Positions 19,781-64,000 of a DNA stretch of 64,000 nucleotides are shown here, in pieces. Within the stretch, counting starts at the first letter, position 1, and every line of letters begins with the position of its first letter. Source of the DNA: Botryllus schlosseri (Eukaryota). The position numbers were made by a program, and so were the translations under genes. The stretch lies in the NCBI GenBank assembly GCA_051294905.1, contig CM119372.1, positions 22,508,001-22,572,000 of the forward strand, given 5' to 3'. The notes under the pieces were generated by a model that worked only from the letters and a program-made list of their open reading frames with translations, searched no databases and was not told the origin of the DNA.

Positions 19781-20814
19781 ACTGCAACAAGTCAAGTCAA
19801 TATAAATTCACAGTGGATCATAAAATAATCGAAGTTGTAGTCATCAGACCGAATCCCTTATTAAATGGATCATTTTGTACGAGTTGAACGTATAATAACG
19901 CCACATTTTTTCCTCGATTGCTTTCACGTGACGGTGCGTGTGGTATCATTTTTGAGCAACATAACTTTTGAATCTAGCGCGGGAACCAGCTGATTCGTCC
20001 ATATTTTTAGAAATCGACTTTTTATTAACTAAATCCGCAAGTATATGAATAGCTTTTCGTTCTATATTAAGGCAGCTGTAGCATAAAAATAGAATTCGCG
20101 ATATCTGCAGGATATCTATATCACGGGTTCTGACGTCAAACGGTGGCCTTCGGCGACATTTTCGATATCGATCGCTTGAGGATTAAAAACGCGACATTGT
20201 TTTGTACTGTTAGTCGGATCAATGTTGTAGCCTCGAGTGTTTCACGAGGCAGTGACTTCACTTTGCAAGATATCGGATAAGCATTCAGACACGCAACAAC
20301 AATGCGTATATACTAATGAACCAGTGCTCTCATCGGTCTCATGTCGTATTATTATCAACACCGCCATCATCACTTGACCATGAATCACAAATAATGTTTG
20401 TGCACGATATCGACTTGCATATAAAGTCGTATCGTTTGGATTTTATTAATCAACATCGGTACATTGCAAATCTCTAACAAAATTGCAAAGATAAAACCCT
20501 GGAAAATGCTGTTATCACGATCCAGATGCATATTTTCAGTCCTTCTGTGGTATTGCCCTGAATATTTTATTTTAATGAGCGTAATTGAAATTCCAGAATC
20601 CTGCCAGGGACATCAGGAGACATCTGGGGTTACTCCAGATTAGTTGAGGACTAATGGGCCAATAAGATGACCATCGCCCGAAGTAGCAGCTGGACATTGA
20701 AAACAATACTAATGGGATTTCATGTCTTCAGCACTTTTTGAACTGCTCAAACAAGTTTCTGCCTTCACCCGGAGCTGTCTTTATTTACGCTAGAAGTAAC
20801 TACGGGTACATTGT

Positions 20815-33200: not shown

Positions 33201-36200
33201 GTTCCGATCATTCGCTTGACGCCATTCGTCATTGTGTTGCCGCGCTCCAGTTGTTCAGAACAATCAACCTTTGCTGGCTATTTAGGAGTAGTTTTATTGC
33301 CCTGGCGAGATTTCAATTCGTATTTTTGGAATCAGTACGACACTTGCTTTCGATAAACACGACATATCAAATTATTCGGACGCTTGGGTCGCGAGCTATA
33401 GGACTACCAAATATGCTGCTTTTGCCGGCTAAGCAGTAGCCTACGCATCACGGCGTATTCAATCGTAAGTCACTTGTTGCACAACTATCCGTAAATTAGT
33501 TATCAATACCCAGGACCGTAACAGCACTTCGTCAGCCCCCCCCCCCAAAAAAAACGTTGCTTTTGGGCTCCCCATATGGTGATAAACCGAACTTCGAAGC
33601 CCCCAGACCCCCCTCAGGCTAGATGGCTGTTTACCGCTATTTATCACCTAAATCGGGTGTGCGTTTTAGGCAGCTTCTCTCGACTAATCACAGGAAGCGC
33701 GAAAAATTTCCATAATTCATGATTGAATCGGTCAATATAATCGGGAATTGCGTATATATTGGTATCAATTTTTATCCTCTCTCTGCTCACGTAATCAGAT
33801 CGACCGGTTGAGCCGAGTCAGTTGTGTTTGAAAAGGTAGGACCACTCAATAATATTTAAACCTCTTCGGGCGTATACCCGTTGGCAGGAACGAAACAGCA
33901 CTTCGTCAGGCCACCCAAAACACTTAGGTCATGAGCTCCCACAGGGTGATAAACCGACGCCCCGTCCCGTTGTTCGCTTCTGCCACGAAATCAGGATCCC
34001 CGTTTAGTGAGCCAGCGTGGAGTGCGAAAATTTTCGATAATTCAAAATAAAATAGGTCAATAAGATCGGGAATTGCATATATATTGCTATCAATTACTTG
34101 TCCTCTCTGCTCACGTAATCAGATTTACCGGTAGAGCTGAGTGAGGTGTCTTGGAAACTGTAGGGCCCGTAAATAATAATTAAACATATTCGGACGGGCG
34201 GACCCGTTGGTACGACTTCGTTACATGATGTTATTTCGTGACCTCCAGTCTGCAATATCAAAAAATATAGAATCGTCCAAACGTACCAAACTAAAAGATG
34301 CACTGGAAAATAATTCTTCCCTGCGGGATGGTAGCCTATTTGTCTCGTGAGGTTCAGATTGCCAGGACAGGAACATTCGGCGCCAGTCATTTAAACGCCT
34401 ATGATCAATTATACCTATATGTATTTTGTATATACATAACGAAGTTTTCGGTCAGAGTAAGGGCAGTCTCGCTGACGATTGTTCTGGTACACTTCTTGGA
34501 GTCGCATGTTACATGACCTAAAACTTTATATGTCTTCGTGCATCGAGGCGCGCTAATGGCCAACGCCGATATGCCCACTTCGATAGATCTTGCGTATTTT
34601 ATCTTGGTAAAAGAGAACCCAATAATTAGGGTACTTGGAAACTTGAAATCGCGAACAGTGCGAAAATTTTTTGAAAAAGTTGCATAAAATTTCATAAATT
34701 ACTCTATAATTTATGCTAATTCACTAAATAATTTTGAGCCCCCTTCGAGCTGGCTCCCCCCAATTTGGGGGGCTTGGGGTTCGGCAGTTACGGTCCGGTC
34801 AATACCTAATATCTATACCTATATATATAGGTACTGCTCGTTCAACTGGAAAGTTAGGGCACATTGCATTGAAACAGCAGTGACGTAATCTTTGCAGTCT
34901 ACTCACAACTCTCCTGCAATCCTAATTGAAAACTCGAGACTCCAAGCCAAGCAAGAGAATTTTATAAATATATATTTTTTTTCATAAATCGATTTCTAAA
35001 TATTTTAGTGGGGGCCGCAAGAAGGCTAGCTGGGGGCCGCGGTTGGGAATCACTGGCCTAGACATAAAGTTTCGGACGACATGCTACCATGCGACCCCCA
35101 TGCGGTGTATGAGTTGCCAAAATGATTGGAGGCGATAAAACCTTAAAACAAAATAACCACATCATACTGTCAAGGCGACGAAGTGACCATCGACGAATAG
35201 TCCAGCGCCCGCGGCTTGAGCCGCACGTATCAAATAAGACTAGCCGAGGAAAATAATGGGCCCCTTGTTGAAATGCGAATTTGGAATCGTGTTCGTCTCT
35301 CGGAAGGAGATATTCTTTTAGTTTCGTCTGGTGTACAAGCCATTACATAATATATGGAGCAGCGACAGTCTTTACCGCTTTACCGCGACCTTTGCAGACA
35401 AATCTAGTGTCAGACCGACCTTAATCTGACGCGAAACCGACTTGAATAATACAGGGAAGGGCACATTTGTCATCGTCATCAGACTATATCATTGTAACAA
35501 CACAATCAATCACAGAAGATCGATCATTGCCCCATTGCGCGACTGAAAATAAATTATGTAAATATCACGTACATTTAAGCGCTAGGTCGGGTGCGGTAGC
35601 AAGTAGCGACCAAAATTTATTCCCTTCGCGACCAATCAAGAATCACTGGCGCGAAGAATGTCGTAGCCAGCTGCGGAAAAACGGTTGGTGGTATTCTTCG
35701 CTTGAAACGTGAAATATTTATAAATTGAATGTTTGACACGCAAGCTATTAAAAATGGACATTTTTTGACATTTTGGCACGCTGCACACAAAAAGATGCCG
35801 GCCCCTGAATTAGATAAATGATGATATTTTAGGCAAGCCCTAAATACACTTTATATATGTCATAGCATAGACGCCGTAAAAGTCCCAAGTTCATGGGAAG
35901 TGAAAATAAAACTTGTATCGATATTTCACTATGACGATGCCAGCGGACATTGAGAGAAGATTTATTATTACAGTGAAATTCAGTGATGCCTGTCGTCTTC
36001 TCCGGCCTTGTGCGCGACGGACAAAATGTCTTCAGGGTAAACAGACTTAACATCTGTCCTATTTTTAAAAAAACGTTGGTTGGGCGCCAGCATGTAGGAT
36101 GATTTATGAAATGATTTTTGGCCCCTTGTATCTCGCCCCCCTCCAATTTTGCGGATGGGTGCGGTAGTTACGGGAGTGAACGTGTATCGACGGTTCGACC

Positions 36201-37330
36201 TCATGCTCTTTACAAGCGGATTGAGGCGATACGAGGGAGACATCTAGCGAGGAGTTTACACTAACCTGAACTGCGACGCTCCCTTTGACAATGAAATACA
36301 TTGAGAAACCCTGATGTCCCTCACGTAAAATGACGCGGCCGTCTTCAAAAGTCTCGAAATGCATTACCCTCGCCAGCTCACGCTTTACTAACGGAGAACA
36401 TTTTTCGAACGACTGAAGAGAGATCAAGTTACTCACTGTTGATAAATAGGCTACATAGGCCTAGAGTGATCGCAAGTTTTCAACCTTCATTTGATTGACG
36501 ATTCCATGTAGCAGTTCGAGTTCCTCATCCGTCCTCTCCCAAGGATTTTTCAGCAGCACGAATTTTGCCCGTTTTGACAATCCAGTACCGGAGTTACCCG
36601 GTTTGAATGCATTGATGTTAAAGTGAAGAGTGTCATTGTCTTCATACCTGGTCCATTGAAAAGAATGATTTAGTTATCCAAATGAGTCAATATGGAGAAT
36701 ATCAACAGATAAGCTAAAGTACGAAATCACCAACATAATTCAACAATTCATTTCATATTACACTTTGAAGTTGCGGATTCCTAGTCCAAATACAAATCCA
36801 GAAATTCTCTTTTGTTGCAATTAGATCTGGAAGTAGGCCCTATATACTTCATTCATTCTCAAAGAATTGTGTTATCAACGTGGAATTCCTATTCGAAGTC
36901 AATGATATTAGCATGATAATTATGGTGCCTCACTTAAAATTTACCATACAAACCATGATAGCTGAGAACAGACTTATTGCTTTGTCGGGGATTAACTGCT
37001 ATGCTTCGCTTTAGTAAGCCCACGGTTGGTTGCCTTTGAACTTCAGTTGTTTTATTCAATTTGAAACTTTACCAAAGTATAGGCTTACTGTTCTCGATAG
37101 GAATGCATGCTCATCCCAAAAATCACACAAGGCTCTCAAATAAGGAAAATTAAATCCCGTTCCCTAATTGGTACGTGATTGCAAAATTCTTACCATGATT
37201 TGATCGCTAGCTCTTCGGAACTGAGACCGTCCTTGCTTTCGAGAAGTGATATTTTCCATCTACCAGCTCGAATAATTGATCTTACGATATTTTTGAATGA
37301 TCTTTTGCCATTATTGTTATTGGATAACAT
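24275..37330 (-). CDS. Cyclic nucleotide-binding domain-containing protein, CNBD2-like (two cNMP-binding domains), 10 coding exons, about 455 aa
   Basis: Exons 37330-37194, 36647-36485, 36412-36266, 32135-32006, 30928-30814, 30743-30599, 28624-28507, 24864-24739, 24631-24492 and 24421-24275 join in frame. Motifs GRVILREGHQGFSMYFIVKGSVAV, GSCFGELALIQDCTRTATIVC, FLRVDKPDF, IYFIVTGLCKII, LEPGDYFG, WKNYKKKVLEDVV. True start may lie further upstream. Confidence 0.88.
27470..27943. mobile_element. hAT-type MITE (intronic)
   Basis: TIR CAATGATGAGC / GCTCATCACTG, subterminal ACTCCG repeats, TSD TTTGATAT/TTTGGTAT. Confidence 0.75.
29506..30113. mobile_element. 608-bp near-perfect palindromic (foldback) element with 8-bp TSD
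   Basis: Arms of about 300 bp are reverse complements around a short spacer near 29806-29812; termini TAGGGTTGTT / AACAACCCTA; TSD ATGGGCAT at 29498-29505 and 30114-30121; inserted into a MITE spanning about 29413-30368. Confidence 0.92.
31086..31986. mobile_element. hAT-type non-autonomous element (intronic)
   Basis: GGGATG / CATCCC ends with clustered GGTTCAC/GAACCT subterminal motifs at both ends; TSD unclear. Confidence 0.6.
33075..35055. mobile_element. hAT element nested in the 32544 element
   Basis: TIR CAGTGGTTCCCAACC / GGTTGGGAATCACTG; perfect TSD GCCTAGAC (33067-33074, 35056-35063). Confidence 0.9.
33511..34798. mobile_element. Third-level nested hAT element with internal tandem duplication
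   Basis: TIR CAGGACCGTAAC / GTTACGGTCCGG; perfect TSD TCAATACC (33503-33510, 34799-34806); 33520-33885 is repeated at 33895-34215. Confidence 0.88.
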
Positions 37331-38819
37331 GTTCCATGTCAGTCTGTCAAGAATCGGGAATTTATTGTACCGGATGGTTAAATCATATCCTTGTGACGTA
37401 ACAATGTTCAAGTTAACTGCTGCCATATGGTGTTTTTCAATTGGGATGCCATGTCGCCCCCGACTGCCATTTGGAATGCTCAAGGGTACCGCGAAATAAC
37501 GAGGTATTGAAAGACTGTGCCCTATAGTTTGTTTAGCTTGGACCCATTAGGCACTGATTCTACGTATTTTAAACCCGACGCATTGTGGATCGAGGGTGGA
37601 AAAGCACTACTGGCGCCTCTGCGCTGCGATGTTAAATTCGCCAAGAGACAGCGGAATACGGCGCAGCACAAACTGTATACATTGTTGTGACACAATAGGC
37701 TTGGTAATTATCCGGTGACATGACTACCGGTTGGAATATATTCTCAATTCAGTTCGTCAGCTTTCGACAACATGTCCGCTTTGGCTCTGTCCTGATCGCT
37801 GCGATAATTATTTCATATGATTGGGTGCCTCAAGGTCACAAAGGTTCAGAACCGCTCTCTCGCAGCATGACAATATAAGCATATTGAATCTTAATTCGCC
37901 TGACGCGTTATTTGAGAACTAATAGTTTGAAGAGCTATCGGCGTAATCGATTGCAGATCTACGCCGTAAAAGACATTTTTACTCACAAAACCATTTGACG
38001 TTCTAGCATTTTCACCAACAAAAATTTATAAGTTGATTAGACAAACTGACATTTTCTGAACCGCAACGCATGAATAATGTATTTCGTTTTGAAATGCCGT
38101 TCATCATTCTTGATTTTTGAATGATTGTTATAGGAAAACATCCGATTCAATTTGAAATTATTCGACAATTCCGACGATTTGCAAGTCTAAACTCGAAATG
38201 TCCTCTGGTAGCCGATACAATCGATATATTCCCTCCCACGGGATGACTGCGGTACTTTACAAAATTTAATTACCTAAAGATGATTAATTGGCCATATGTA
38301 CAGATGTGATCCATGCATTGAATTTGTGATCACACAGGAGGAGAAAAGGAGAAATGAATAGCACCGTTCACAGCGACATAGTTTACCATTTGATGAGATT
38401 TTATATGTACCCGTTTAACGATTGTAGAATCAAACAAGACATGTAGTTTGTATATCTTGCGTGCAGCGTACAGTCGTACACCCATCCACAGTCCACACCC
38501 TACCAAGCTGCTTTAATGTGGACACCAGAACGTTTTGGCACAAGTTTGTATATAATGTCACATTTCCCAGTTTTTATAACACTAAACACGATTTCTCAAG
38601 TAGTAATATTGTACGAACTTCGCGTACGGGTACTAGTAAAAGCTAGGAGTGTTACAGTTGCTGAGTCCCGCCAAATTACTTCAAATAAAAGTCGAAAATA
38701 ACAGGTATAGGACAGGGATATCTAGTCTAGATATCCCTGATATCGGAGTTTAATCTTAGGCTATTGATCCCGAATCAGTTTTCGTCAACCGGGGACAGTA
38801 TATACTATATAGTGTACGG

Positions 38820-41245: not shown

Positions 41246-42499
41246 CAGGGGTCGGCAACCTTTTGTGTGCAGCGTGCCAAAATGTCAAACGAATATCAAA
41301 TTATTACCAACTTGCCTGCCAAACACTAAATTTATTCATATTTAACGTTTCTAGCAAGGAATCCCACCAACCGCTTTTCTGCAGCTGTTATCGGCATCCG
41401 TTACGCCAGTGATTCTTAAATTATTGGTTGCGAACGGAATAAATTTTGGTCGCTTCCGCACTGGACCTATCGCTTACGTGTAGACCCTACGTAATATTTA
41501 CATAATTTATTTTCAGTAGCGCAATGATCGATCTTCTGTGGTTGCTTTGGTCGTTTCCAAGTTCACTGTGTTCGGTCGGTACCATATCCAAGAGGTGACA
41601 GACCATGTATCAGTGTTGTCACGATGATATATGGTCTGATGATGATGAAAAATGTGCCCACCCCGGTATCATTCAAGTCGGTTTGGTGTTACATTAAGGT
41701 TGGTCTGACAGTAGATTTGTCTGCAAAGGTCGCGGTAAAGATTGTGGTTGCTCCAGGTATATTGGAATCGCGTGCACACCAGACGAAACTGAAAGAATAT
41801 GTCCTTCCAAGAGACGAACACGATTCCAAATTGACATTTCGACACGGGGCCCATTATTTTCCTTGGCGGGTCTCATTTGATACGTGCGGCTCAAGCTGCG
41901 GACGCGGTACTATTCTGCGGTCGTCACTGCGGCGTCTGGACAGTAGACATATCAATGTCGAGCGTTTTGGCCAGCATGCGGCGGTCATCTTATTTCAAGG
42001 TTTTATCGACACCAATCATTTTGGCAGTGCATATCACCTACATCGCACGGAGTCGTGTGCCCAGCGCCGACCTGTCGGTTGATGAAATAGTCGAGCTCCC
42101 GCAAGCTGCACAGTGAACCCTGCTAGACTAAAGCATCCAAACGGTTTCATACGATATTTGGTTGACGTTCTTTCATATGCTAATACGGTTGACTCGCTGT
42201 ACATTATGCATATTTTAAAAAGACATGTTCTGTATACATATATATTTCTTTCTTGGGAGTCCCCCAATATATTCCAGACATCAGGGCCCAATAAATCGCG
42301 CATAGCGCGGAACTTTTTTTAAAGATACATGAAATCTGCTCTAAAAGACTCTATTTTGTGTTGATTTTAAAAACTTATGTTTCACTTTTTTGCAAAAACA
42401 TGGTTATAATATGTCGTTTGCGTGAAATCCTTTGGCGTACCATGAAAAATCATCTTGGATGCCACAAATGGCACGCGTTCGGGGGGTTGCCAACCCCTG
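41246..42499 (+). mobile_element. Approx. 1.25-kb hAT non-autonomous family copy
   Basis: Ends CAGGGGTCGGCAACC / GGTTGCCAACCCCTG; degenerate TSD TGCTATAT/CACTATAT; reverse-complement homolog of 44304-45578. Confidence 0.85.
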
Positions 42500-43653
42500 C
42501 ACTATATGTATACTGACGTACGCCTAAAGTAAACCATGAACTCTATACATTAGAACATCTCGCAGAAAAATGCCTTGCAAACTTCCAAATGTTTTATTTC
42601 ATAAATTAATGGAATTGGACAAGCACTCGATATAGTGCATTTTTGGAACTGAGATATAAAAGTATAATATATATATGGCGCACCGGCAGAAATCTTGCCA
42701 CCGACTGGCGGTTGAGAACCACTGGTTTAGAGTATCGATTTGCATACACAAACAAGTCTTAGAAACATTCTCTGCCTATATTGGTAGAATAAACTATCAA
42801 TCTGGTTTGTTGAAATTATAATTCGTAACGTCTCATGACATACAGCCTAATATAACATTGATTCCGTCACACGCGCCGTGTATTGATGACATCAATGTTC
42901 TCTCTAAGCTTCGCACGTGCGCAAATGCGCAGTGCTAGCACGGTCTCTGCGCACAGAAAATCCAAGTTGCGTACAAAAAGTCCGAAGTGATGACCTTTTT
43001 TTAGTCGTTATGCACTGTTTTTCAAGAGTCTGCGCAGTGAGTTGGTGAGTGTGCGCAGACTCCTCAAAAATTAGAGGGAACATTGGATGACATATCAAGC
43101 TGATTTCATCCGACTGACTTGAGTGCAGTTTTAGTCGCCTTTTTCAATACAAGCCTTTCGTCACTCGTGGCATCTATAGCTATCGAGTTACTCTCCCTGA
43201 CCTCAGAAAATCGATTGCTGCCCTCGTCGAAAATGAATTCCATATTCCCAGACATAGTTGAATAACACGAAATTGATTTGCAGCGTACAACGTATTAGGA
43301 ATTCACTTATACATGAATTCGCAGAATAAAAATGTGCGTTTTTTACAGGCGCATCACAATGGAAAGCTTCAAATAGCAGTCGCGACCCACCATCTTATCA
43401 GTGGAACGACTTGTCGTACATAAGGAGGATGTATGCTTATGCTTATGCATCACTATTCATGGTGTTTGCAACTAGATCTTTTTTCTGGTTGGTTTTTACG
43501 TCGAACACCAGAATTAACGTAAGCTATATGGATATGCGTGAAGCTGAACACCTGAACGCTATACGATAAGTACAAAAATCTCATTACGTTGATTATAGTG
43601 TAGCACGTCACAATTTACTACGGAAAACGTATCGTTATTTTATTCAAGGGATA

Positions 43654-44073
43654 ATGTTAAACAAGACGATGCTCGGATCAATAGGGGTAATTTTACTATG
43701 GGTATCCACAATGGAATGCAGAAGTCTGACCAACGCTAACGACAATCCGCTGTCAAAAGTTTCGCAACAAAACGCACAACTATCACTGGGGTACGTGCCG
43801 AAGAAATCGTTTTATCACAACACCGAACGGGATCTCGTCAATAGGCAACATTTTTCATTTGGGTTCCGCCCTGGTGGCAAAAGGTCGTTGTATTTCGATA
43901 TTCCGAACAGCCTTTTGGATAGCGCTGAAGAAGTAGCAACCGACTGGCCAGTAGTGGACGACTTCGATAAAGATAAAAGACAACATTGGTCGTTCGGATT
44001 CCGACCAGGTGGCAAAAGATCCGCCCCGTCGGACGAAATGCTGCGAGAAATACTCTCGGTGAGTATTGGATAA
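43654..44073 (+). CDS. gnrh: Gonadotropin-releasing hormone prepro-peptide, tunicate-type multi-copy precursor, 139 aa
   Basis: Hydrophobic signal peptide; R-QHFSFGFRPG-GKR (43846-43884) and KR-QHWSFGFRPG-GKR (43981-44019) have an N-terminal Gln, a Pro-Gly end, an amide-donor Gly and a dibasic cleavage site; single coding exon with an acceptor-like ttcaag just upstream. Confidence 0.95.
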   Translation: MLNKTMLGSIGVILLWVSTMECRSLTNANDNPLSKVSQQNAQLSLGYVPKKSFYHNTERDLVNRQHFSFGFRPGGKRSLYFDIPNSLLDSAEEVATDWPVVDDFDKDKRQHWSFGFRPGGKRSAPSDEMLREILSVSIG

Positions 44074-44303
44074 CAGTCTTGAAACAAACCAAAATAATTG
44101 GGAGGGGACCCGTTACTGAAGGATTAATATTAATATTATCATTAAAAGTTTTCAGTGGCACTTATCCCCTGTTAAGGTCTTGTGTTCCACAGACGCAAAC
44201 AAATTCATGAAAATGGAACCCAGATGAATCTACTACTGGATAGAACAATTTAGCAACAACGGGCGATAGGGTGGGGTTAGATAGCACATCAAATAGAGTA
44301 AAT

Positions 44304-45578
44304 CAGGGATCGGCAAACCCCGGCACGCGTGCCATTTGTGGCACGTGAGATGATTTTTCATGGCACGCCAAATGATTTCACGCAAACAGCATATTATAAC
44401 CATGTTTTAACAAAAAAGTAAAACAGAAGGTTTTTAAAATGTGCAGGGTTCGTAGGTGACCCAAAAATACTTCGTAAATCAACATCAAATAGAGTCTTTC
44501 GGGGCAGATTTTAATTATCTTGAAATTTTTTTCCGCGCTTCGCGCGATTTATAGGGACCTGATTTCAAGTTTATAGTGTGGGTACCCCCACAAATATGCA
44601 TAATGTGCAGACATCAGTCCAACCGTATTAGCAATCATGAAAGAATGGCAACTTAACAATCTTAACACCGTATCATACCGTTTGGACGCTTTAGTCGATG
44701 AGTGTGCACTGTGCACTGTGCAACCTGCGGGAGCGCGACTATTATATGAACCGGCATTTCAGCGCTGGACATTTTCACTCTATAGAGGACACGACATCGA
44801 CGTTGCGTTACGGGCAACATGCGACCACGCGACTCCGCGCAGTGTGTGAGCTGCTAAATGATTGGCGGCAATAAAACCTTGAAAAATAAATAACCGCCGC
44901 ATGTTGGCTAAAACGTTCGACATTGACGTGTCCACCGTCCGAATGACCAGCGTCGAATAGTCCAGCACCTTGCGTATCAAATGAGACCCACCGATGAAGA
45001 AAGTGTCTTCACTGTCTAAATGTGGATTTCTAATCGTGCTCATCTCACGAAAGTAGCTTTTATTTTAGTGTTATCTGATACGTGTAAGCGATTCCAATAT
45101 ATCGGGAGCAACGACAACCTTCACCGATTTACCGCGACATCTGGATCTTAGCAGACAAATCTAGTGCCAGAGGGCAACCTCAATGTAACATCAAACCAAC
45201 TTGTGTGATACACTGATACAGGGGCGGGCTCATTTTTCATCATCAGGACATATCATCGTAACAACATTGATGGGCATGTCACTGATTGGATATGGTAGCG
45301 AACGCAGTTGACTTGGAAACGACCAAAGCAACCGCAGAATAATTGCGCGACGAAAAATAAATGATGCAAATATAGTACAGCGATATGTCTAGTGAGGTAG
45401 CGACCAATAATTTAAAAATCACAGTCATAACCGAGGCTGCTGCCAGGTGCAGATAACCGGTTGGTGGATTCCTTTCTTGAAACGCTAAGTATGACAAAAA
45501 ATGTTTGGCACGCCAGTTAGCAATAATTTCTCATTTTTGACATTTTGTCACGCTGCATACAAAGGTTGCCGGCCCCTA
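44304..45578 (-). mobile_element. Approx. 1.25-kb hAT non-autonomous family copy (inverted relative to 41246)
   Basis: Ends CAGGGATCGGCAAA / GGTTGCCGGCCCCTA; TSD GAGTAAAT/GAGTAAAA. Confidence 0.85.
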
Positions 45579-46021
45579 GAGTAAAATGAAGCATGAAGGT
45601 TGAGCCTAGTATACACTCGTCGCGCAGAAATCTGCGATGAAATTGATATTCCGGACATACAATAATGAAATGGTACACCGTTTCGAGTACATCACAAAGG
45701 GGGGAGAGAACCGACTGAAGGATATCGAAGATGAGAATAGCGAATGCCACAATAAGGTCATTAAATGTTCGAGTTCGTGTGAGTTCCAGCATTTACAAAA
45801 ACCTCGTAATGATTGAGAAAGTGAAATTGTGTCGTCATATTGCCAATTCCAAATACCAATTATCCGATCGCGGGCAGAACGTATAATGACGACGCAATTG
45901 CTTGTCACTTTTCGAATATGACAACATCAGTACTTCACGAAATCAATTTCCGAATTCTAGGAGGAAAGTCTTCTGCCCTTCCCGCTGATTATATGCATTA
46001 CCGAAGTATAGTGCGTCTCAT

Positions 46022-47232
46022 CATAGTGTCCTATATGGTGTGGACACAAGCAAATCTCACGGCTCAGTGAAATTTGTATACGTCACATTTTCCATTTGAC
46101 TAAAGGCAATTTGACGGTAATTTTTGACCGGCTTGCCGAGCATCAAATTTGATGAAACGGGTATCAATCGAAAGCTGCCGCTGTACTGATTAGGAAAATA
46201 TAAATTTTATTTCGCTCATGGTCCTGGAACCCCCACAATCAGTCTCGAATTTTTCATTGTTATGGTGAGAGTCATAGTAAAGCAACAATGCTGTCTGACG
46301 AAACGAGAGCGTAGCGTAGCTGAGGAGCAAATGAGTGGCTGCGCGGCGAGAGTGAGTGCTCAGCTGGCGTCGCGGCAATGATACAGTAGGCTGTACTTCT
46401 GACGCACTGACGCAGAAGGTCTCCGACATTCAGAGAAATCCAAATGGTGATTGAAAAATGATAAACCAAATTCCAACGTCGCCGTTTAGTTTAATCTTTT
46501 CCATATTCCTGACAAGGGCTATATTGGTCTAGGCTTGGTAATAGAGCATTCCTGTGAAAAACAAAGGTATAAGAATTTGGTGGTAACTTTTTGGAATCAT
46601 TTGACTTGTCCGGCCCGCAAGCTATCTAATAAAGGATTGAATCCGGACCGCGACCCCAGTTTAGTTCGACACCCCTGCTGTAAACCTTCAATCAACATTT
46701 TACCTACTGCATTCGAGGACCAAGTACTACCCTTACAGGTCAAGGAAAGGCTGGTAATGTGTGCTCACTGCTCACACATAATTTGTGTGCTCGCTTCTAC
46801 CGAAGCGACTATAGAAAGTATTAACAGCGCAATGATTCTCAGCGACGCGATTGCACTTCGAAACACAAGCTCGATCATTGCCCATTGCCGCGACGCCAGC
46901 TGAGCGGTCACTCTCGCCGCGCAACCACTCATTTTCTCTTCAGCTACGCTATCGTTTGGCCAGACAGCATTGTTGCGTCACTATGCCACTCTTCATAACA
47001 ATAAAAAATTCGAGGCTGGTTGTGGGGGTTCCACGGCCATCAACGAAATAAAATTTATATTTTCGTAATCAGTACAGCGGTAGCTTTCGATTGCTACCCG
47101 TTTTATCAAATTTGATGCTCGACAAGCCGGTTAAAAATGACCGTCAAATTGCCTCTAGCCAAGGGGAAAATGTGACGTAAACCTATTTCACTGAACCGTG
47201 AGATTTCCTTCTGTCCACACCATATAGGACAG
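46022..47232. mobile_element. Long-TIR non-autonomous element, P-superfamily-like
   Basis: Inverted arms of about 350 bp (46022-46380 vs 46883-47232); left terminus CATAGTGTCCTATA; flanks GTCTCAT/GTCTCAC consistent with a 7-bp TSD; another arm copy at about 61340-61560. Confidence 0.75.
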
Positions 47233-47768
47233 GTCTCACCAGGTAAATTGAAATTGTAGTCTACGACTAGTTTGATCAATAGGATATTCGAACATATAGT
47301 ATTGTAGAGCTTCTTGGAGGTACAAAACTTCAGTATACAATTGAATAGTATATTCATATTGAAATGATGGCTGACTCTCGTCAGGGGTAATCGTCAACAA
47401 CTAGTAGAGAATAAGAAGGAACATTGTATATCAACAATCGTATCACAAAATATGATGTCACCAGCATGAAACTTCGAATGAGAGAGCGTTCAGTGCACTA
47501 TTCCTAGGTGGTACACGAACTCCTTCTGTTGTCAGAGTTATCTGATATCAGAACACGTGCATCACGCTCGGTGTAAAGCTCACCCTTAACTCATCCACTC
47601 AAGCTTGATGCTGACCGATCGAAGGCCATTAATTCTGCAATCGGCAAACATCTGTTGGATAATCCTATTTGTGCGAATAATTATCGAGACGACTAATTTT
47701 GGGTTATTGGGAGGGGTCGTTCACACTGCCACTTGTGTGCCTCGGAGTCGACTTTTATCAAAATACAC

Positions 47769-48252
47769 CAGGGCTGGCCAACCTTTTCGACCAAAGGGCC
47801 ACATTTGATTGGCGAACTGCTGCGAGGGCCACTAGCCGCGCCAAGCGCGAAAATTTTTTGAAGTTCACTGGTCAATAATATTGTCACCTGACTATATTGC
47901 GGGCCTGCTGTATATCGCTGGGCTCAGTTTGCAAGGACTGGGCTATCGGCGTCTGGACATATCGATATCGAAAGTTTCGACCAACATGCGTCAATCATTT
48001 TGTGCCTATAGGTTTGATAGTCGACGGTCTTTCTGCGAGTGCAAACGCACAGTCGCAGATGTTGAACGACACTCTGTCTCGTAATCTCGAATATAGTTAG
48101 ATTCAATTTGATACATTAGGCGTCCTCACAGGTTCACAATATGTGAAATCCATTTTTGATAACATTAGAAATTTCGGAAATTACCTCGCGGGCCACTCAA
48201 AACCTTCTCGCGGGCCACATGTGGCCCGCGGGCCACGGGTTGGCCGGCCCTG
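47769..48252. mobile_element. hAT MITE inserted in the Penelope ORF remnant
   Basis: TIR CAGGGCTGGCCAACC / GGTTGGCCGGCCCTG; perfect TSD AAATACAC; related to 52642-53266. Confidence 0.9.
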
Positions 48253-48424
48253 AAATACACCAACCGAAACTCTGTCAACAGAAGGAGTTCGTGTACCACC
48301 TAGGAATAGTGCACTGAACGCTCTCTCATTCGAAGTTTCATGCTGGTGACGTCATATTTTGTGATACGATTGTTGATATACAATGTTCCTTCTTATTCTC
48401 TACTTCTACTAGTTGCTGACGATT

Positions 48425-48458
48425 ACCCCTGACGAGTGTCAGCCGAAAATATTCGGGT
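48425..48458 (+). ncRNA. Minimal type I hammerhead ribozyme motif
   Basis: ACCC-CTGACGA-G-TGTCAGC-C-GAAA-ATAT-TC-GGGT: stem I ACCC/GGGT, both conserved core boxes, 1-bp stem II, palindromic stem III (AATATT); lies in a Penelope pseudo-LTR, where such motifs are known to occur. Confidence 0.75.
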
Positions 48459-48725
48459 TCATTTCAATATGAATATACTATTCAATTATATAGTATTGTG
48501 CAACCGATGCCCCCGATCCTGATAAGTTTACCACGATAGTCCAAGTACAGAATGCTTCAAATCAAATGAGTTGTCGATATGTTTTCGCCCAAATTTGTGT
48601 GACATAGGCTACGCAAATCAGATGTATAGGCCTCACTATACAAAAGTTTTGCCGGACAATCCGCCCTTATGCAGTTAAGTTTAGGATGATTGTAAAGTGG
48701 TGATATGCGGCAATACTATGATCAC

Positions 48726-49551
48726 CAGGGCTATTTTTTTGACATGTCAAAATAGGTCAAGATTTTGTCAAAATCGTAGCGTTAGGTCAACAATTATCAA
48801 AACTGTTTTCAAAGTCTAAATGGTTTTGCTACCTGCATTTCGTTTGTATCGTAGATGTTTGCACTGTCGGTGAATTTTTCATTTGACATTTTACAGCTTG
48901 TATAGCCTACTTTATACGCCTAACCGTTGTAGATGGCCCACTATCTGCTCATTGTAAATCATAAACGGCCAAATGAAGCAAATAGGTTGACAACCGCAAT
49001 GAAGCAAGACTTCGAGGGCATTGGTTCTTATATCAAGAAGCGCAAGATGAAAAATTGTGATGTATAGAGTATAGATAACACTGTCAGAATGAAGCAGCAC
49101 GGTGTGTCACCAGCCAACAACTGCTGCTGTTGAACGTTCTCTCTCCATTCTTAGCAAACTGCTTAGTAAGGACAGACACTTTCTATCCTAGAATGTAGGA
49201 AAGTATCTTTCGTTGTACTACAACAAATATTAAATATTTCTGCCATAATGCATGATGTAACTAGTGGAATTCTTCATGGGTCCAGATTTCGCTAAAATAT
49301 AGTTTTTTTTTCATGGAAAAGTTTGCCAGTTTTAAGTCAAAAATGTTTTTTCAGCCCAAGCTACGTCATAAGGACAGACAGTTCCAACCAGAAATGAAGA
49401 TAAGTAGTAGGCCTACAATTCTAACATTATGTGGGAAAACACCTAATTTACATACATTAGGTCAAAATTGAGTTTATTAATGTCAAAAAATGTCAAAATG
49501 TTGATTTTTGAGGTAAGAATTTTCCATTTTTTAGGTCAAATATTCGCCCTA
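48726..49551 (+). mobile_element. Deleted hAT element with transposase C-terminal remnant
   Basis: Ends CAGGGCTA / TTCGCCCTA; perfect TSD ATGATCAC; GGTCAA subterminal repeats; PTTAAVERSLSILSKLLSKDRHFLS*NVGKYLSLYYNKY* at about 49114-49233. A related end fragment lies at about 10135-10248. Confidence 0.85.
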
Positions 49552-51214
49552 ATGATCACTAGTCAATATATTTAGAAACGGTGACATAACAAGCAGCCTC
49601 TCTAATGAACCCATGACCTGTCTGACCTGTCTTTGATTAGGGTACACGGATACGTACGAGTGGTCGAGTCCGAATTGAGTATTGATTGAAGTGATGCGAA
49701 TCGAGAAGAAACCGTTCAATTTAATTTAATGTTTCATAAAAAATGTAATTACAATACAAGTAGTAGATACTGGCACAACAATGCTGTAAAGCGATTTCAT
49801 TGAAACGTCACTATATGATTGCGGACGTTCATAGTTTATTAGTGCCAATATATACCGTCATTTGCCATGTAAAATGAGCAAGATTTTACCGATTTTTTGT
49901 CCTAAAATCGGCGGGTACGCATCATACATGGGTACATCAAGTCTTGAAAAAAATCTCCATCGAAACCAAAATTGAAATCATACCTTTATTCGTGTTTGTT
50001 TTCAGTCGCGCAATACATTCAGCCAGCCCATCGTGCCCTGTAATTCGTATTATCAGTGTTGCGCGGTGCCAATTACCGAGAAGCGCGTTATTAATTAGCG
50101 AGAGTCATCTGCGCTGCGCAACTGAACGCGATCTCCTGCTAAGTTGGTTTGCCATTTGTACGCGAGCGAAATTAGGTCATTGATTGCATTACCAATTGGC
50201 TTGGCAAACATTTCTAATTATGTCATATTTAGCGTTGCAAGCAAGGAATTCCACCAACTGCCTTTCTGCAGCTGACAACCGCGTCGGTTACGCCTGTGAT
50301 TTTTGCAGTATTGGTCGCGAAGGATATACAACAGGGGAGGGCAACTTCTCCAGTCGGCGGGCCGGATATAGGAAAATAAAGTACTTGGCGGGCCGGATTG
50401 CTGAATCGATACATTATTCGCCCATTCATCCACATATACAAGGAATAAATCGTATTTAATGAATGTATTTCAACGACAGCAATGTCACTTCAAAGCCATT
50501 TCTTGCCGATAATGACGAAGACAATGTGAATTTGAGAATAACATTGTCATACAGGCGCCGCCATGTCTGCTTCTCTCTGATCAACCAACGCACGGTGCAG
50601 TCCCTAATTAAGATTTCAAGGCGTTCGATAAGCCCGGTAACCATAATTAACCAAGATATCAATCCATAAGGGTTGAGTAGGTGACGAGATAGCGTCGTTG
50701 TTCAGCTGTGTGGCTTAATTAATCTCGATATTGAATTCATGCGGCCCGCACCCTTTACGAAATTTGAAAAGTGGCCTGCGACCGTTTTGAGTTGGCGACC
50801 ACTGGCATAAGCGGTGCCTTACAAAAGCCTAGAAGTGTGTCATGCTACAAGTCGGTGGTTGGAATTAAAAATAAGAAATATCAGCCTGATGTAAATGACC
50901 ATTGTAGTCGACTAAAATCATGATTACCACAGACGACATTAGGGTTGAGTGCATCGTAAATGCCGATAATGCAAGTCTTCTCGCTTCGACGAACTAATGC
51001 GTAAGCTCCTTTCTCGCAACGCGGTGTATTGCGCATAATAACATTCAGTCACTAAAATTTGACGTAGTAAGCAAGTAGTGGGGAATCTCAACAGACTGGG
51101 CCGCGGGCCACATTATCATGTAAGACGGAAATCTGTCCGCGGGCCGGACAAATTCTCTTTGCGGGCCGGATCCGGCCCGCGGGCCGTATGTTGCCCGCCC
51201 CTGATATACAATAT

Positions 51215-51750
51215 ACATTTTGGTCGCTACCGCACTAGACATATCGCCTAATGTACATATTTGCATCATTTAATTTTAGTCGCGTAATGTTCGATCTTCT
51301 GTGATTGATTTGGTCGTTTCCAAATCAACTGTGTTCGGTGCCATAACTAATATGTAACAGTCCCATCAATTATGCTACTATGATATGGGCTGATGATGTA
51401 AAAATGTGCCCATCGCTGTATCACGCAAGTCGGTTTGATGTCACATTAGGGTTGGTCGGACACTAGATTTGCCTGCAAAGCTCCAAAGATCGCGGTAAAG
51501 CGATAAGGTTGTCTTTGATCCAGCACACGATTCCAAATTAGCAGTTCGACACGGGATTCATTTGATACGCGCAGCTCAAGCTGCGGGCGCTGGACTATTC
51601 GGCGGTGATTTCGGCGCCGGTGATTTCGGCGCCGGTGATTTCGGCGCCTGGACAGTGGACATATCAATGTCGAACCTTCTTGACCTACATGCAGCGGTTA
51701 TTTTATTTAAAGATTTTATGGCCACCAACCATTTTGGCAGCGCAGACAGC
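51215..51750 (+). repeat. Partial copy of the 1.25-kb hAT family containing a 15-bp tandem triplication
   Basis: Colinear with 41445-42030; GGTGATTTCGGCGCC x3 at about 51604-51648. Confidence 0.7.
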
Positions 51751-52641
51751 GCGCCGAGTCGAGGTTTACCATGTCCTCCATTTTCAGGAAATCGAAAATG
51801 TTCCCTACGCCTAAATGTCCGCAATTTTGTAAATTCGTCCTCCTTTACAGCTGTGGCAGCTAGGCTAGTGGATAGCGTCAACTGAAAATCGCCATAAATG
51901 ACGCGAAATGCGCCATGCGGACGTTTGAGCGCGTCATTCAGGAGTCGAGTCGGACTGCTGACTTTTTTTTTATTTTTTCCTAGTCAACGCCAGAGAAGCA
52001 TCGTTAAAAAGTGGGTATTTCGGGAGTTGAATCAAAGTGATGATGACCTCTTTTTTAGTCAACACCAGAGCTGTGTCGGTAAAAAGTGGGTTGTTGACCT
52101 TTTTGATAGTCAACACAACAAGATCAGCAGTTTTCAATTTCGGTAAACCAACTTTTATGATTTGATGCAACTGCCCTCCTTTTCCGATTCCAAAATATGC
52201 TACCCTATCGGTATATATTATATAGAGTCAAGTAATAAAATGAAATGGCGTAGGCTTATACGGGTCAGGAACCCAAGTTCGAGCATGATTGGATAATCGC
52301 TGACCACGCTGTAAATCTAATTAGTAAAATATTTGTAATGCGTGCGTTCCCGCCTAATTGCAGGAGATGCATGAATGACACCGACGGCTACAGACGCAGC
52401 TGCACCGACCGACTTGAATGAATAAGAATTCTTCCTATATTTATATAATACAACGCATCAGAAAATGTTCACGAGTTTTGTACATCATATAGATGCCGAG
52501 GGATTCAGGGAGATGAAGAATGAAAAATACTATTTTTCGCCGTCGGGAGGAATCCTATCTCCTATGCTTTCATTATATCGCAGTCGTGTGATGTATTGAT
52601 TTGATATATAAAAAATAAAAAAAATGATGATGATCTTAGAG

Positions 52642-56517: not shown

Positions 56518-59500
56518 GGCCCCGTGGATATACTCAGATATCGCAGATATCGCAGGTATCGCAGATATCGCAGATATCACTACTGTGGATATACTCAGAT
56601 ATCGCAGATATCGCAGATATCATTGTGGATATACTCAGATATCGCAGATATCACCAAAATCCGCAGACATCGAGGTCATATAAAGGTCACGCTTCATTTA
56701 GAGCGCAGATATCACGTCTTAAGCATGTCTAGGTCGATTCAGTGCGCAGATATCAGGTCCGGACCATGCCTGGGGGAATTTTGTGCGCAGATATCAGCTC
56801 CGGAGCATGTCCGAATACAAAAAGTGCGCAGATAGCAGGTATGGACCATACCTGGATTCTTTTGGTGCGCAGATATCAGGTCTGGACCATACCTGGATTC
56901 TTTTGGTGCGCAGATATCAGCTCCGGAGCATGTCCGAATACAAATAGTGCGCAGATATCAGGTATGGACCATACCTAGATTCTTTTGGTGCGCAGATATC
57001 AGGTATGGACCATACCTGGATTCTTTTGGTGCGCAGATATCAGCTCCGGAGCATGTCCGAATACAAATAGTGCGCAGATATTAGGTCTGGACCATACCTG
57101 GATTCTTTTGGTGCACAGATATCAGGTCCGGACCATGCCTGGGGAAATTTTGTGCGCAGATATCAGCTCTGGAGCAGCATATCCGGATACAAATAGTGCG
57201 CAGATATCAGGTCTGGACCATACCTGGGCTCTTTTGGTGCGCAGATATCAGCTCTGGAGCATGTCCGAATTCAAATAGTGCGCAGATATCAGGTCTGGAC
57301 CATACCTGGATTCTTTTGGTGCGCAGATATCAGGTCCGGACCATGCCTGGGGGAATTTTGTGCGCAGATATCAGCTCTGGAGCATGTCCGAATACAAATA
57401 GTGCGCAGATATCAGGTCTAGACCATACCTGGCGCTGTTTCCTGCATTGATATCAGGTCCGCAGCATGTCTGACGCCAAGCGATACGCAGATATCAGACC
57501 CGGAGTATGTCTGGATACAAATATTGCGCAGATGTCAGGTTTGGACCATGCCTGAGCGTATTTCTTTGGTCGATATCAACTCCACATCATGTCTGGATGA
57601 AAATGGTCAGGCCTGGTCACTGGTCAGAGCTGACCAGTAACAAACCACTTACAGTTATTTTGGAGTCCTCTGGCAGATTTTGCCTGCTTGCATCACTTAG
57701 GCTACTCTAGTGCAGGGGTGTCAAACTCAAGTTGTTTCGCGGGCCGCATTCAAACCTTCAGAACATAGGGGATTAGGGGTTCTATTCAAGCGACACGTTT
57801 ATTCGCAAACAATGGAATTTGCAAAAATACAAATATTGACTGGTTGAATATAGTTACAAACCGCTAAAACAGGGGCTCTTACGACGATATCAGCATATTT
57901 CTATGATCGCCTTGTTTCAGTAGTAATCTGGCGTTAACTCTGCGTATGCGTTGGGAGGAATACAAGAGATTTAACTGTAGACGTGGCCGTTGGAATTCGG
58001 TTCATTTAAATCGCGATTCGTTTTCCTCTGGTGGTCGGGAACCTTTTCAGTCAGAAGTGATACAGTAGTGCGAACGCAGATATTTGAATTACATTTTTGT
58101 AACTACTATATTCTCCATATATTCATGCATGCAACGATTTCACATTGGCGTTTTCGCTTCTTCTAGGTCAATTCTAGGTCAATTCTAGGTCAATTTTTCC
58201 ATTAAACTCTGAACTCAGTGTTCTTCAGTTTGGCTTCCCGGAATTGCGTGTCAATGTCACCGAATTTTTGCTAATACTGCTAGAGTGAAACCACAAAATA
58301 ATAGGTAAAATGTGGCCTATGCACATATTTTACCTTTGCTGCATTGAGGGATTATTTAATAGAAGTTTCACGGACTAAAAATCTCAACATTTGTTAGAAA
58401 TATGCAGGATAATACAAGCATTTTTCCATCAAATCGAAATTTTTTCGCGGGTCGGATAAAATCGTCCGGTCTTATGTTTCACACCCCTGCTCTAGTGGTT
58501 ATATATCTTTGTACTACATCCAATACTACTTGAAAAAATTTTAAGGAAATAATAATACTTTTTTACACTTTGTATTTTGTAAAGTAGAGAGTAGGCTAGC
58601 ATTGGCACATGTTTCTATCACGTTTATAAGAATAATATCCATGATAAATGTTCAAATAGCCTCACACTCCTTGCGAAAAGAGTGTGTATTCACACCCGAA
58701 GGGCGGAGAAGAGTGGTACAAGAAAACATAACGTAACTAAGAATTATATAGCGGTCATAAATCCCAAGTGCCTATACGTGCATACCATTCTACGTTACTA
58801 TGAGCATGCAGAATTTGGATTAAAATGTTGTAGACTAGGCTACTGTATTTATACCGCGGTTTAAATCTGAGGTACTTTCAGGTTTTGTGTGTCATGAGTA
58901 CAGTGTCGTTCAAAAATAACTTTTTTCCGGATTCCAGCCATTCACTGATTAAATTGTCAGGTTACCCTGAAAACCGTTGCACGCCAAATTTGGTTCAATT
59001 CTAACAAGTATATAAGCCACCGCAGAGCCAATTTAGATTTTTAATTTATTAGAAAAAATGTTTTAAAAATTTCAAATTTTCCTGTCAACCCCCCGAAATT
59101 GTTGAATTTTCTTCAAAGACGATGCAAAACAAATTTGAATCAATTCCAACTAGTAAAAGCGGAGTTATTTGAGTTTTTCGTTGATAATTCTCGGATTAAC
59201 TACCAATATACACAATTCCCGAAGAATCCGACACGGCTCGGATTTCGTGCTAATGCGTGAGCCGAACAAAGCGCAGATGGTCGGAGTTTCTCATTTAGCT
59301 GTTTAAACAGTATTTACCATGTTTGTCGACTAGCCCTACCTGCGTATTCGATTAAGTTGACCGTCGCAACGCTCTATTTGTATCCGGACATGCTCCGAAC
59401 CTAACATCTGCGCATGAAAAATGCGCCAAACCTGATATCTGCGCACTGGTTAGGGCATTATATGTTCAATGCTCATATAGGTGCTGATATCTGCGCACCA

Positions 59501-60213
59501 TTTGTATCCGGACATGCTCTGGAGCTGATATCTGCACACCAAAAGAACTCAGGCATGGTCCAGACCTGATATCTGCACCCTATTTGTATTCGGACATGCT
59601 CCGGAGCTGATATTTGCGCACCAAAAGAGCCCAGGTATGGTCCAGACCTGATATCTGCGCACTATTTGTATTCGGACATGCTCCGGAGCTGATATCTGCG
59701 CACCAAAAGAGCCCAGGTATGGTCCAGACCTGATATCTGCGCACTATTTGTATTCGGACATGCTCCGCAGCTGATATCTGCGCACCAAAAGAATCCAGGT
59801 ATGGTCCAGACCTGATATCTGCGCACTATTTGTATTCGGACATGCTCCGGAGCTGATATCTGCGCACCAAAAGAGCCCAGGTATGGTCCAGACCTGATAT
59901 CTGCGCACTATTTGTATCCGCACATGCTCCAGAGCTGATATCTGCGCACAAAATTCCCCCAGGCATGGTCCGGACCTGATATCGCGCACTCAATCGACCT
60001 AGACATGCTTAAGACGTGATATCTGCGCTCTAAACGAAGCGTGACCTTTATATGACCTCGATGTCTGCGGTTTTTGGTGATATCTGCGATATCTGAGTAT
60101 ATCCACAATGATATCTGCGATATCTGCGATATCTGAGTATATCCACAGTAGTGATATCTGCGATATCTGCGATACCTGCGATATCTGCGATATCTGAGTA
60201 TATCCACGGGGCC
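56518..60213. mobile_element. Foldback-type element: long inverted arms made of 9-bp and 41-bp tandem units
   Basis: GGCCCCGTGGATATACTCAG at the left end and its reverse complement at the right end; arms about 56518-57610 and 59375-60213; flanks GAGATGTG/GAGAAGTG (7 of 8 match); no transposase inside. Confidence 0.9.
57713..58489. mobile_element. hAT non-autonomous element inside the foldback spacer
   Basis: TIR CAGGGGTGTCAAAC / GTTTCACACCCCTG; perfect TSD CTCTAGTG. Confidence 0.9.
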
Positions 60214-63294: not shown

Positions 63295-63930
63295 CTATTC
63301 TTTCAATTCAACAAGTCTAGTTAACGGATCGATTTTCAAGCTGCCCACACAGTTTTTAACACGAGTGAGTTGATATTTCTTCCCGGGTACGAGCGAGGCT
63401 TTGTTCCATTGATCCAAAACCACCTCACCAGTATCATCCTTCAATGTAAAACTGTATAATTTCAACTCCTTTCCGGCACCAGAATTGACCATCTTCTCCT
63501 CTCGAGAAACACAAGTAGCGGCGATCGAGACGTATTCATCTTTATTTCCGTATACCGATTCACAGGTCAATAATGGGTATTCTTCAGTCGTATGTCTCGA
63601 TTTTCCATGTAAAGTTACTGACGAAGCCCGACCAAGTAATACAGCGGGTTTTCCAGTGATTTTATCAATTTGAACCCAACCGGATTTGACCATGAGTTTT
63701 TTTCGTTTGGTGAATGCTTTCTCAATGTTCCCGAACAAATCACGATTGAAACACGTGAAAGATATCTCTTCGTTATTGCCATCGATGAATATACCTTTGA
63801 GATATTGGCTAACGCCACCTCTTTTGGGTGATGAGACGAATTTGACGCCGACGTGAAAATTTGAAGTTGCTCCGACTTGCATAGTGTTGACGCTGTTCGA
63901 TGCCATATCGTTTGATAAAGTGGGAGTCAT
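63295..63930 (-). CDS. Intronless 211-aa protein with two predicted OB folds (RPA/SSB-like ssDNA-binding)
   Basis: Two beta-rich repeats: VKFVSSPK...YLKGIFID..EEISFTCF and VSIAATCV...KLYSFTLKDDTGEVVLDQW...LVPGKKYQLTRV; the L.D.TG....W motif is typical of RPA-type OB folds. Confidence 0.7.
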   Translation of the reverse strand: MTPTLSNDMASNSVNTMQVGATSNFHVGVKFVSSPKRGGVSQYLKGIFIDGNNEEISFTCFNRDLFGNIEKAFTKRKKLMVKSGWVQIDKITGKPAVLLGRASSVTLHGKSRHTTEEYPLLTCESVYGNKDEYVSIAATCVSREEKMVNSGAGKELKLYSFTLKDDTGEVVLDQWNKASLVPGKKYQLTRVKNCVGSLKIDPLTRLVELKE

Positions 63931-64000
63931 CAGTGTAACTCACTACACAAATCAAGTTGAATCGTATTTGAATGTAGTGATTCGACCCAACTCAAATCCT

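Follow-up and report, generated by a model that had tools for sequence, protein, structure and literature searches.

Introduction

Among named GnRH precursors, those nearest in layout and peptide core to the gene described here come from Halocynthia roretzi and Styela clava, both with Tyr5-Gly6-Phe7 copies; with the cassettes masked, the similarity is weak. The prepro-GnRH of H. roretzi (P0009; UniRef100_J7M3X0, BAM38050.1; 134 aa) encodes two decapeptides, tGnRH-10 and tGnRH-11, which both have Trp3 and Tyr5, carry Ser8 or Leu8, and both follow Lys-Arg. Tandem Gly6-Phe7 cassettes are also found in S. clava LOC120342289 (XP_039266993; P0004) and in the Logan sequence P0003, with four and seven identical Trp3/Tyr5/Ala8 copies, respectively, seven being the maximum in the set of 25 precursors surveyed below. 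In Ciona intestinalis, gnrh1 and gnrh2 encode tGnRH-3 to -8, three per gene, flanked by monobasic as well as dibasic sites, all with Trp3 and none with Arg8. Ligand-selective GnRH receptors have been described in Ciona, together with an endogenous partial antagonist, Ci-GnRH-X (PMC7697785), which is a 16-residue peptide.

The consensus pGlu-His-Trp-Ser has been stated for all ascidian GnRHs (PMC7697785, PMC5592718). In the table of a 2020 review (PMC7697785), 17 of the 18 chordate decapeptides have Trp3, one has Tyr3 and none has Phe3, and Arg8 is found in none of the 11 tunicate decapeptides. With regard to mammalian GnRH, agonist activity is set by residues 1–3 and affinity by the C-terminal part, in particular by Arg8, and Tyr5 of GnRH1 was reported to contact Tyr6.58 of the receptor (PMC5662886); alterations of Trp3 are said to strongly reduce binding and activation at the mammalian receptor (PMC11768417). 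The minimal motif of the GnRH/AKH/corazonin superfamily includes an aromatic residue (W/F/Y) followed by S/T (PMC3969558, PMC5592718). Protostome GnRH-like peptides, which have been discussed with the corazonin/GnRH-like receptor group (PMC3969558), comprise 11–12 residues with a two-residue insertion.

In Botryllus, a 2026 single-cell atlas (PMC13635237) reported a Gnrhr2-like receptor in bud founder cells, budlets, gonads and the nervous system, and proposed GnRH signalling in budding; no ligand gene is named in the sections of that source available to us. Here, we describe a GnRH gene within a 64,000-nucleotide stretch of Botryllus schlosseri DNA (the window), in which an initial annotation made from the letters alone had noted two GnRH decapeptides with unusual residues.

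Results

Two Decapeptide Cassettes in a Single prepro-GnRH Exon

The segment 43654–44058 (+) of the window is confirmed as the coding exon of an ascidian prepro-GnRH, with a signal peptide and two decapeptide cassettes (Table 1). The open frame (P0001) extends from the ATG at 43654 to the stop at 44071–44073 and comprises 139 residues. Both decapeptides predicted in the initial annotation were found in this one exon and in the same frame, and position 3 is indeed the sole residue that differs between them (TTT versus TGG, two bases). We refer to the Phe3 decapeptide of cassette 1 as peptide 1 and to the Trp3 decapeptide of cassette 2 as peptide 2.

Table 1. Features of the B. schlosseri GnRH locus, in window coordinates.
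Feature	Position	Strand	Content or evidence
Trans-splice acceptor	43640..43648	+	Pyrimidine-rich, AG at 43647-43648; 81 X23 reads with loose 5' letters
Main coding exon	43649..44058	+	5 nt UTR, then residues 1-135; X13 contig, X23 depth, X21 strand
Predicted signal peptide (~residues 1-22)	43654..43719	+	Core hydrophobic (Kyte-Doolittle mean over 9 residues, maximum 2.6)
Probable vestigial third GnRH cassette (residues 41-50)	43774..43803	+	Ser4/Gly6/aromatic7/Pro9-like core; His2, Trp3 and amidation signal lost
Cassette 1	43843..43884	+	Monobasic Arg; QHFSFGFRPG (43846-43875; Phe3 TTT 43852-43854); Gly-Lys-Arg to 43884
Cassette 2	43975..44019	+	Lys-Arg; QHWSFGFRPG (43981-44010; Trp3 TGG 43987-43989); Gly-Lys-Arg
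Splice donor GTGAGT	44059..44064	+	Phase 0 after Ser135; X13 leaves the window, RNA depth drops to ~1

In a six-frame translation of the window, the motif Q-H-x-S-x4-P-G-G-[KR]-[KR] occurs twice, where approximately 1e-5 occurrences would be expected, and the Pfam GnRH model (PF00446) matched P0001 with 31.8 bits (cut-off 18.5; E 1.3e-7) over two stretches, the better one being cassette 2. This match, together with the layout of a tunicate multi-copy prepro-GnRH (a predicted signal peptide, at least two cassettes, basic sites and a Gly amide donor), supports the earlier assignment to the tandem multi-peptide precursors of ascidians. The cleavage site of the predicted signal peptide was placed by hydropathy and alignment, its end aligning with the same motif in P0002 (see below), Halocynthia P0009, Styela P0004 and P0003.

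Both predicted peptides have the ten residues of chordate GnRH decapeptides, with Gln1, His2, Ser4, Pro9 and Gly10. Peptide 2 also carries the Trp3 of the pGlu-His-Trp-Ser consensus, from which peptide 1 departs with Phe3. The minimal motif of the superfamily is present in both cassettes (Gln1, Phe3 or Trp3 followed by Ser4, Phe7 and Gly-Lys-Arg), and neither peptide has the two-residue insertion after pGlu or the 11–12 residues that accompany His-Phe-Ser in protostomes and echinoderms. The MH+ values computed for the predicted pGlu/amide forms are 1161.559 for peptide 1 and 1200.570 for peptide 2.

At the DNA level, 7 of the 13 cassette codons differ, six of them synonymously and the seventh being TTT/TGG at position 3. 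Given these six synonymous differences, we rejected a recent copy event from cassette 1 to cassette 2; an old gene conversion between the two is possible. No second GnRH gene was found in the window, either by the six-frame motif scan or by tblastn (0 of 91 matches outside the locus). A PDB sequence search gave 0 matches, and the ESM Atlas returned generic neuropeptide-precursor look-alikes alone, with recognition under the threshold.

The Gene Is Transcribed and Its Message Is Trans-Spliced

Four of the 24 runs listed were aligned to 42000–50000. The GnRH transcript, whose absence would have spoken against the initial annotation, is present in the raw RNA runs X21 and X23 and in contig X13. 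In the bulk RNA run X23, depth was around 80 across the two exon bins and 0 to 1.3 in the flanking bins (0 before, ~1 after), which corresponds to roughly 24 reads per million as a rough estimate. The single-cell run X21 was stranded (97.9 versus 1.26) with coverage rising toward the 3′ end, a pattern that we read as a + strand message with 3′ bias and a short last exon. At 43335–43601, no RNA depth was detected in any of the three RNA-type runs.

The contig X13 (504 nt), presumed to be of RNA type, covers 43646–44059 ungapped with three differences (43676, 43710 and 43737), all outside the cassettes, both of which are identical to those of the window; its sample and study differ from those of the best DNA match. 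The DNA contig X1, which may derive from the source sample, spans 43738–44179 with 0 differences. The TTT codon of Phe3, on which the annotation depended, is thus supported by both contigs. Since X13 matches both cassettes exactly, Phe3 is not an assembly error. An assembly or sequencing error, which would have to involve the two bases separating TTT from TGG and to recur in another sample and study as well as in the Phe3 cassette of P0002, is refuted by X13 and by this ortholog, and we give it practically no weight.

A total of 81 X23 reads carry loose letters 5′ of 43646, preceded by a sequence that we take to be the end of a template-switch oligo. Together with 43646–43648, the loose letters match the 25-nt ‘Chordata 1’ spliced-leader consensus (Table 1 of PMC3795323) at 25 of 25 positions, which indicates that trans-splicing adds the leader 5 nt upstream of the start codon. 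This leader differs from the 16-nt spliced leader of Ciona (PMC3407064). An upstream 5′ exon was also tried as the origin of the loose letters, which had 0 matches in the window at 3 mismatches (best ungapped match, 10 mismatches in 30) before they proved to be the spliced leader. Leader trans-splicing of the GnRH message is an ordinary tunicate process. The leader and the precursor design are those of a tunicate, and the nearest named precursors point to a likely stolidobranch.

Contig X13 departs from the window at 44059 with 78 more letters, and the GT donor at this position, directly after Ser135, implies that P0001 closes with four residues read through from the intron. P0002 ends at a like place, and the mRNA form (P0009) and the read-through form (P0022) of the Halocynthia precursor diverge about there. 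With regard to the last exon, no joint from 44058 was present among the joints listed in 42000–50000, and no convincing candidate was found in 45500–52000.

Among the rows listed, five allelic differences fall in the exon (G8E, L87I and three silent ones) and none in the cassettes. The change of Gly8 to Glu, at 43676 in codon 8 of the signal peptide, is a common allele, observed in 48 of 102 X23 reads and also in the X13 contig.

Phe3 Is Rare among Tunicate-Type Precursors and Recurs in an Ortholog

The word-index search returned one clear relative of P0001, namely P0002 (Logan, one contig), with 44% identity (E 2e-23). When the cassettes were masked, P0002 alone still matched significantly within the set of precursors tested (E 1e-7) and is therefore treated as an ortholog from another species. 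The first cassette of P0002 also has Phe3 and shares nine of ten residues with peptide 1 (Gly8 replaces Arg8), and its second cassette shares seven of ten with peptide 2 (positions 5, 7 and 8 differ). Identity between both precursors amounts to 13/14 in cassette 1, 12/15 in cassette 2 and 29/81 (36%) in the spacers; the conservation of the cassettes over the spacers had binomial p values of 1.5e-5 and 6e-4, respectively. Because Phe3 is found in two species, one of which is represented by a single contig, the retention of this residue by itself is not significant against a spacer identity of 36%, whereas that of the whole cassette is. The two peptides of P0002 differ from each other at positions 3, 5, 7 and 8, so that the one-residue pairing is particular to B. 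schlosseri.

The frequency of Phe3 was assessed in a set obtained from a full HMMER scan (15 matches) and a profile search from 16 precursors (23 matches). After exclusion of seven near-duplicate cluster members and one fish protein, it comprised 25 tunicate-type precursors, including P0001 and P0002; nine of them are named (Ciona, 4; Clavelina, 2; Styela, 2; Halocynthia, 1), and the others were classed as tunicate-type by layout. Of the 66 cassettes that they contain, 64 have Trp at position 3 and two have Phe, one each in P0001 and P0002, and every intact cassette of the nine named precursors has Trp3. Together with the 0 of 18 decapeptides in the review table, this agrees with the near-invariance of Trp3 that had been claimed at the outset. 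Beyond P0002, Phe3 was found neither by profile search nor among shorter proteins (one match, of the Trp3 type). A degenerate DNA scan of metagenome contigs yielded 26 loci, of which 13 translated to the motif, all of them single copies without precursor context, and no further Phe3 carrier.

The same survey gave other departures from the common pattern. Thr4 replaces the consensus Ser4 in 7 of 66 cassettes, in P0011/P0036 (Styela clava LOC120342299), P0015 and P0030, which are annotated as uncharacterised or are unnamed; these precursors represent another exception to the stated ascidian consensus. Residues 147–156 of P0012 (Clavelina lepadiformis XP_076819378.1) correspond to human GnRH1 with Met7 instead of Leu, a peptide outside the 2020 review table.

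Neither decapeptide equals any of tGnRH-1 to -11 or any other of the 18 chordate decapeptides in the review table (PMC7697785), as the initial annotation had noted for the tunicate forms. Both were also absent from a full-text literature search, which gave one unrelated match and which covered few subscription journals and not the first descriptions of the tGnRHs. No description of these ligands was found in the ascidian, Botryllus and styelid GnRH literature searched, and the sections available of PMC13364575, PMC3691228, PMC3074122, PMC6475428 and PMC7776563 contain nothing on these peptides; a gene model for this locus may already exist in genome databases.

Non-Trp aromatic residues at this position are known from more distant peptides. 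In agreement with the annotation, the review table (PMC7697785) gives Tyr3, not Phe3, for lamprey GnRH-I and His-Phe-Ser for octopus-type GnRH-like peptides, with receptor activity listed for both. According to proposals made in reviews (PMC7697785, PMC5592718), the ancestral motif was His-(Phe/Trp)-Ser, and on these grounds Phe3 could be a retained ancestral state common with the H/R-F-S peptides of protostomes and echinoderms. We regard this as very improbable, given that Trp3 occupies all intact cassettes of the nine named precursors and 64 of 66 overall, that a reversal in one lineage is simpler, and that peptide 1 has the chordate length without the two-residue insertion.

A Probable Relic Cassette and the Integrity of Cassette 1

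Residues 41–50 of P0001 are probably a vestigial cassette, judging from the comparison of several precursors, the signal being weak in P0001 alone. In P0001 as in P0002, this stretch scores higher than any other site apart from the true cassettes. Its shuffle p values were 0.055 and 0.0008 for positions 4–9 and 0.22 and 0.036 for positions 1–10, respectively, and in the alignment its counterpart is a full cassette of Styela P0004. The latter precursor contains a decayed extra copy of its own at residues 153–162 (p 0.001). A similar-looking Halocynthia stretch did not score in the shuffle test (p 0.48). These precursors gain and lose copies, and cassette 1 does not resemble the putative decayed relic.

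The existence of such relics, together with the single Arg that precedes peptide 1, could suggest that cassette 1 is itself a redundant copy in early decay, or one poorly released from its monobasic site, with the Trp3 peptide alone being of importance. This seems distinctly improbable to us: cassette 1 keeps Gln1, His2, Ser4, Gly6, Pro9, Gly10 and Gly-Lys-Arg in two species, well above the spacers, and is free of the allelic differences listed for the exon. Moreover, a single Arg precedes 21 of the 66 cassettes, including those of Ciona tGnRH-3 and -5. P0001 has a second Arg at P6 of the monobasic site, which fits the convertase rule, and the corresponding cassette of P0002 is preceded by Lys-Arg.

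Comparison with Known Precursors

Like the Halocynthia precursor, which is of similar length, P0001 encodes two decapeptides, and both have the Gly6-Phe7 core, a similar signal-peptide end and a near-C-terminal intron in roughly the same position (35% BLASTP identity; E 0.57 with the cassettes masked). Peptide 2 differs from each of tGnRH-10 and -11 at positions 5 and 8 alone. In contrast to the Halocynthia pair, the Botryllus peptides carry Phe5 and Arg8, and only one of them has Trp3 and follows Lys-Arg. The tandem arrangement of Styela P0004 and of P0003 is also found here, the C-terminal stretch of P0003 resembling the one before the donor, but with two unequal copies rather than four or seven identical ones. 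Several decapeptides per precursor and the combination of monobasic and dibasic sites are shared with Ciona, whose peptides differ in the features mentioned above.

As the annotation stated, peptide 2 differs from mammalian GnRH1 at positions 5 and 7 only according to the review table (PMC7697785), that is, 8 of 10 residues match, including Gly6 and Arg8; mammalian GnRH1 has Tyr5 and Leu7 and is encoded as one peptide per precursor. However, the emphasis then placed on Arg8 and on this likeness has lost ground. Arg8 is present in 8 of 66 cassettes, six of which belong to four other tunicate-type precursors, and the Clavelina peptide of P0012 matches human GnRH1 at 9 of 10 positions, so the mammalian likeness is not unique to peptide 2 and is less special than it appeared. 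Peptide 2 is, in addition, equally close to tGnRH-10 and -11, with two differences each. Phe5 and Phe7 occur in 8 and 25 of the 66 cassettes, respectively, those of the window included. Convergence probably accounts for the resemblance to mammalian GnRH1, to which we attach little importance. Accordingly, the distinctive feature of the locus is Phe3, and not the mammal-like look of peptide 2, which is a new yet ordinary member of the decapeptide family in a precursor type already known.

Genomic Surroundings of the GnRH Exon

The GnRH exon lies between two inverted repeat copies of ~1.3 kb (41247–42499 and 44304–45577; 67% identity), and this repeat family recurs at 32.5–33.1, 35.1–35.8 and 51.2–51.8 kb. 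Around 6 kb upstream, exons of a gene with a cyclic-nucleotide-binding domain were recognised at 36104–37546 (−), with a cNMP_binding match below the cut-off (E 1.6e-4). At the start of the window, a PIF/Harbinger-type transposon has an intact-looking 353-residue DDE_Tnp_4 transposase frame (376–1437, +; E 1.5e-30) facing a Myb/SANT-like protein (2963–3394, −; E 1.3e-12). Three further regions with long coding-like frames gave no significant Pfam match, namely a helical, lysine/arginine-rich exon set (11188–13030, +), a low-complexity and coiled-coil exon set (16767–19807, −) and a frame of 214 residues close to where the window ends (63295–63939, −). Inverted satellite-like arrays with 41-, 82- and 123-bp units and 9- and 40-bp sub-repeats occupy 56535–57595 and 59484–60196.

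Discussion

With its Phe3, the predicted peptide 1 lies outside the chordate consensus as stated and represents a variant conserved in two species, and both predicted peptides are likely candidate ligands of this animal's own GnRH receptors. The locus is an expressed, leader-trans-spliced GnRH precursor gene, and we consider it reasonably probable that its two predicted decapeptides would be co-released and would both act as agonists at these receptors, with Phe3 shifting potency. According to established neuropeptide biology, the precursor would enter the secretory pathway and be cleaved by convertase at Arg64 and at the Lys-Arg sites. Trimming by carboxypeptidase would follow, the donor Gly would supply the amide and Gln1 would cyclise, giving two peptides in approximately equal amounts, to be stored and released together. 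Since residues 4–10, the part associated with affinity in mammalian GnRH, are common to both peptides, they would address the same receptors, and position 3 would tune activation. Two working agonists are favoured because W, F and Y all occur in active peptides of the superfamily and because lamprey GnRH-I, with Tyr3, is listed as active. With regard to its origin, Phe3 would be a derived change in one lineage. It would postdate a reduction of the precursor from several Tyr5-Gly6-Phe7 copies to one relic and two functional ones; the origin of Arg8 would be independent of that in mammals.

Phe3 may nevertheless do more than shift potency, since Trp3 is kept in 64 of 66 cassettes and alteration of position 3 is described as costly at the mammalian receptor. 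Old analogue studies reportedly found low residual activity of Phe3-substituted GnRH at mammalian receptors; data on its potency were not found in the literature searched. Peptide 1 could be a dedicated modulator, co-released with peptide 2; it would then either partially activate or antagonise a receptor common to both, or be the selective ligand of one receptor paralog. This possibility, which we hold to be tentative and rather unlikely, is consistent with two peptides that share the affinity residues and differ in an activation residue alone, with the near-fixation of Trp3 elsewhere and with the six synonymous codon differences, which imply that the protein identity does not stem from a recent copy. 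Cassette 1 is also better kept between species than cassette 2 (9/10 versus 7/10 residues), mammalian structure-activity data make a modulator plausible (PMC5662886, PMC11768417), and the ligand-selective receptors and the partial antagonist of Ciona provide a precedent (PMC7697785). On the other hand, the P0002 pair differs at four positions, so a pairing of the same address with a different trigger is not conserved, and Phe is usual at this position in protostome GnRH-like agonists, W, F and Y being accepted across the superfamily (PMC3969558, PMC5592718). For these reasons, two agonists of different potency remain our preferred reading.

No counterpart of the Phe3 decapeptide was found among the chordate GnRHs compared. 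The locus contributes two sequences that were not found catalogued in the literature searched, one of which breaks the Trp3 consensus that reviews apply to all ascidian GnRHs. With a single residue differing between them, at the activation position of GnRH, the two peptides amount to a natural experiment. A more far-reaching view, which we judge doubtful, is that this precursor would encode an agonist together with its own modulator: the Phe3 decapeptide would compete at, or select among, receptors and thereby set the gain of signalling, and the pair would be the ligand for the Gnrhr2-like receptor of Botryllus, tying the neuropeptide to the onset of asexual budding. The two peptides are exact and cheap-to-synthesise candidate ligands, which makes the proposal of GnRH signalling in budding directly testable.
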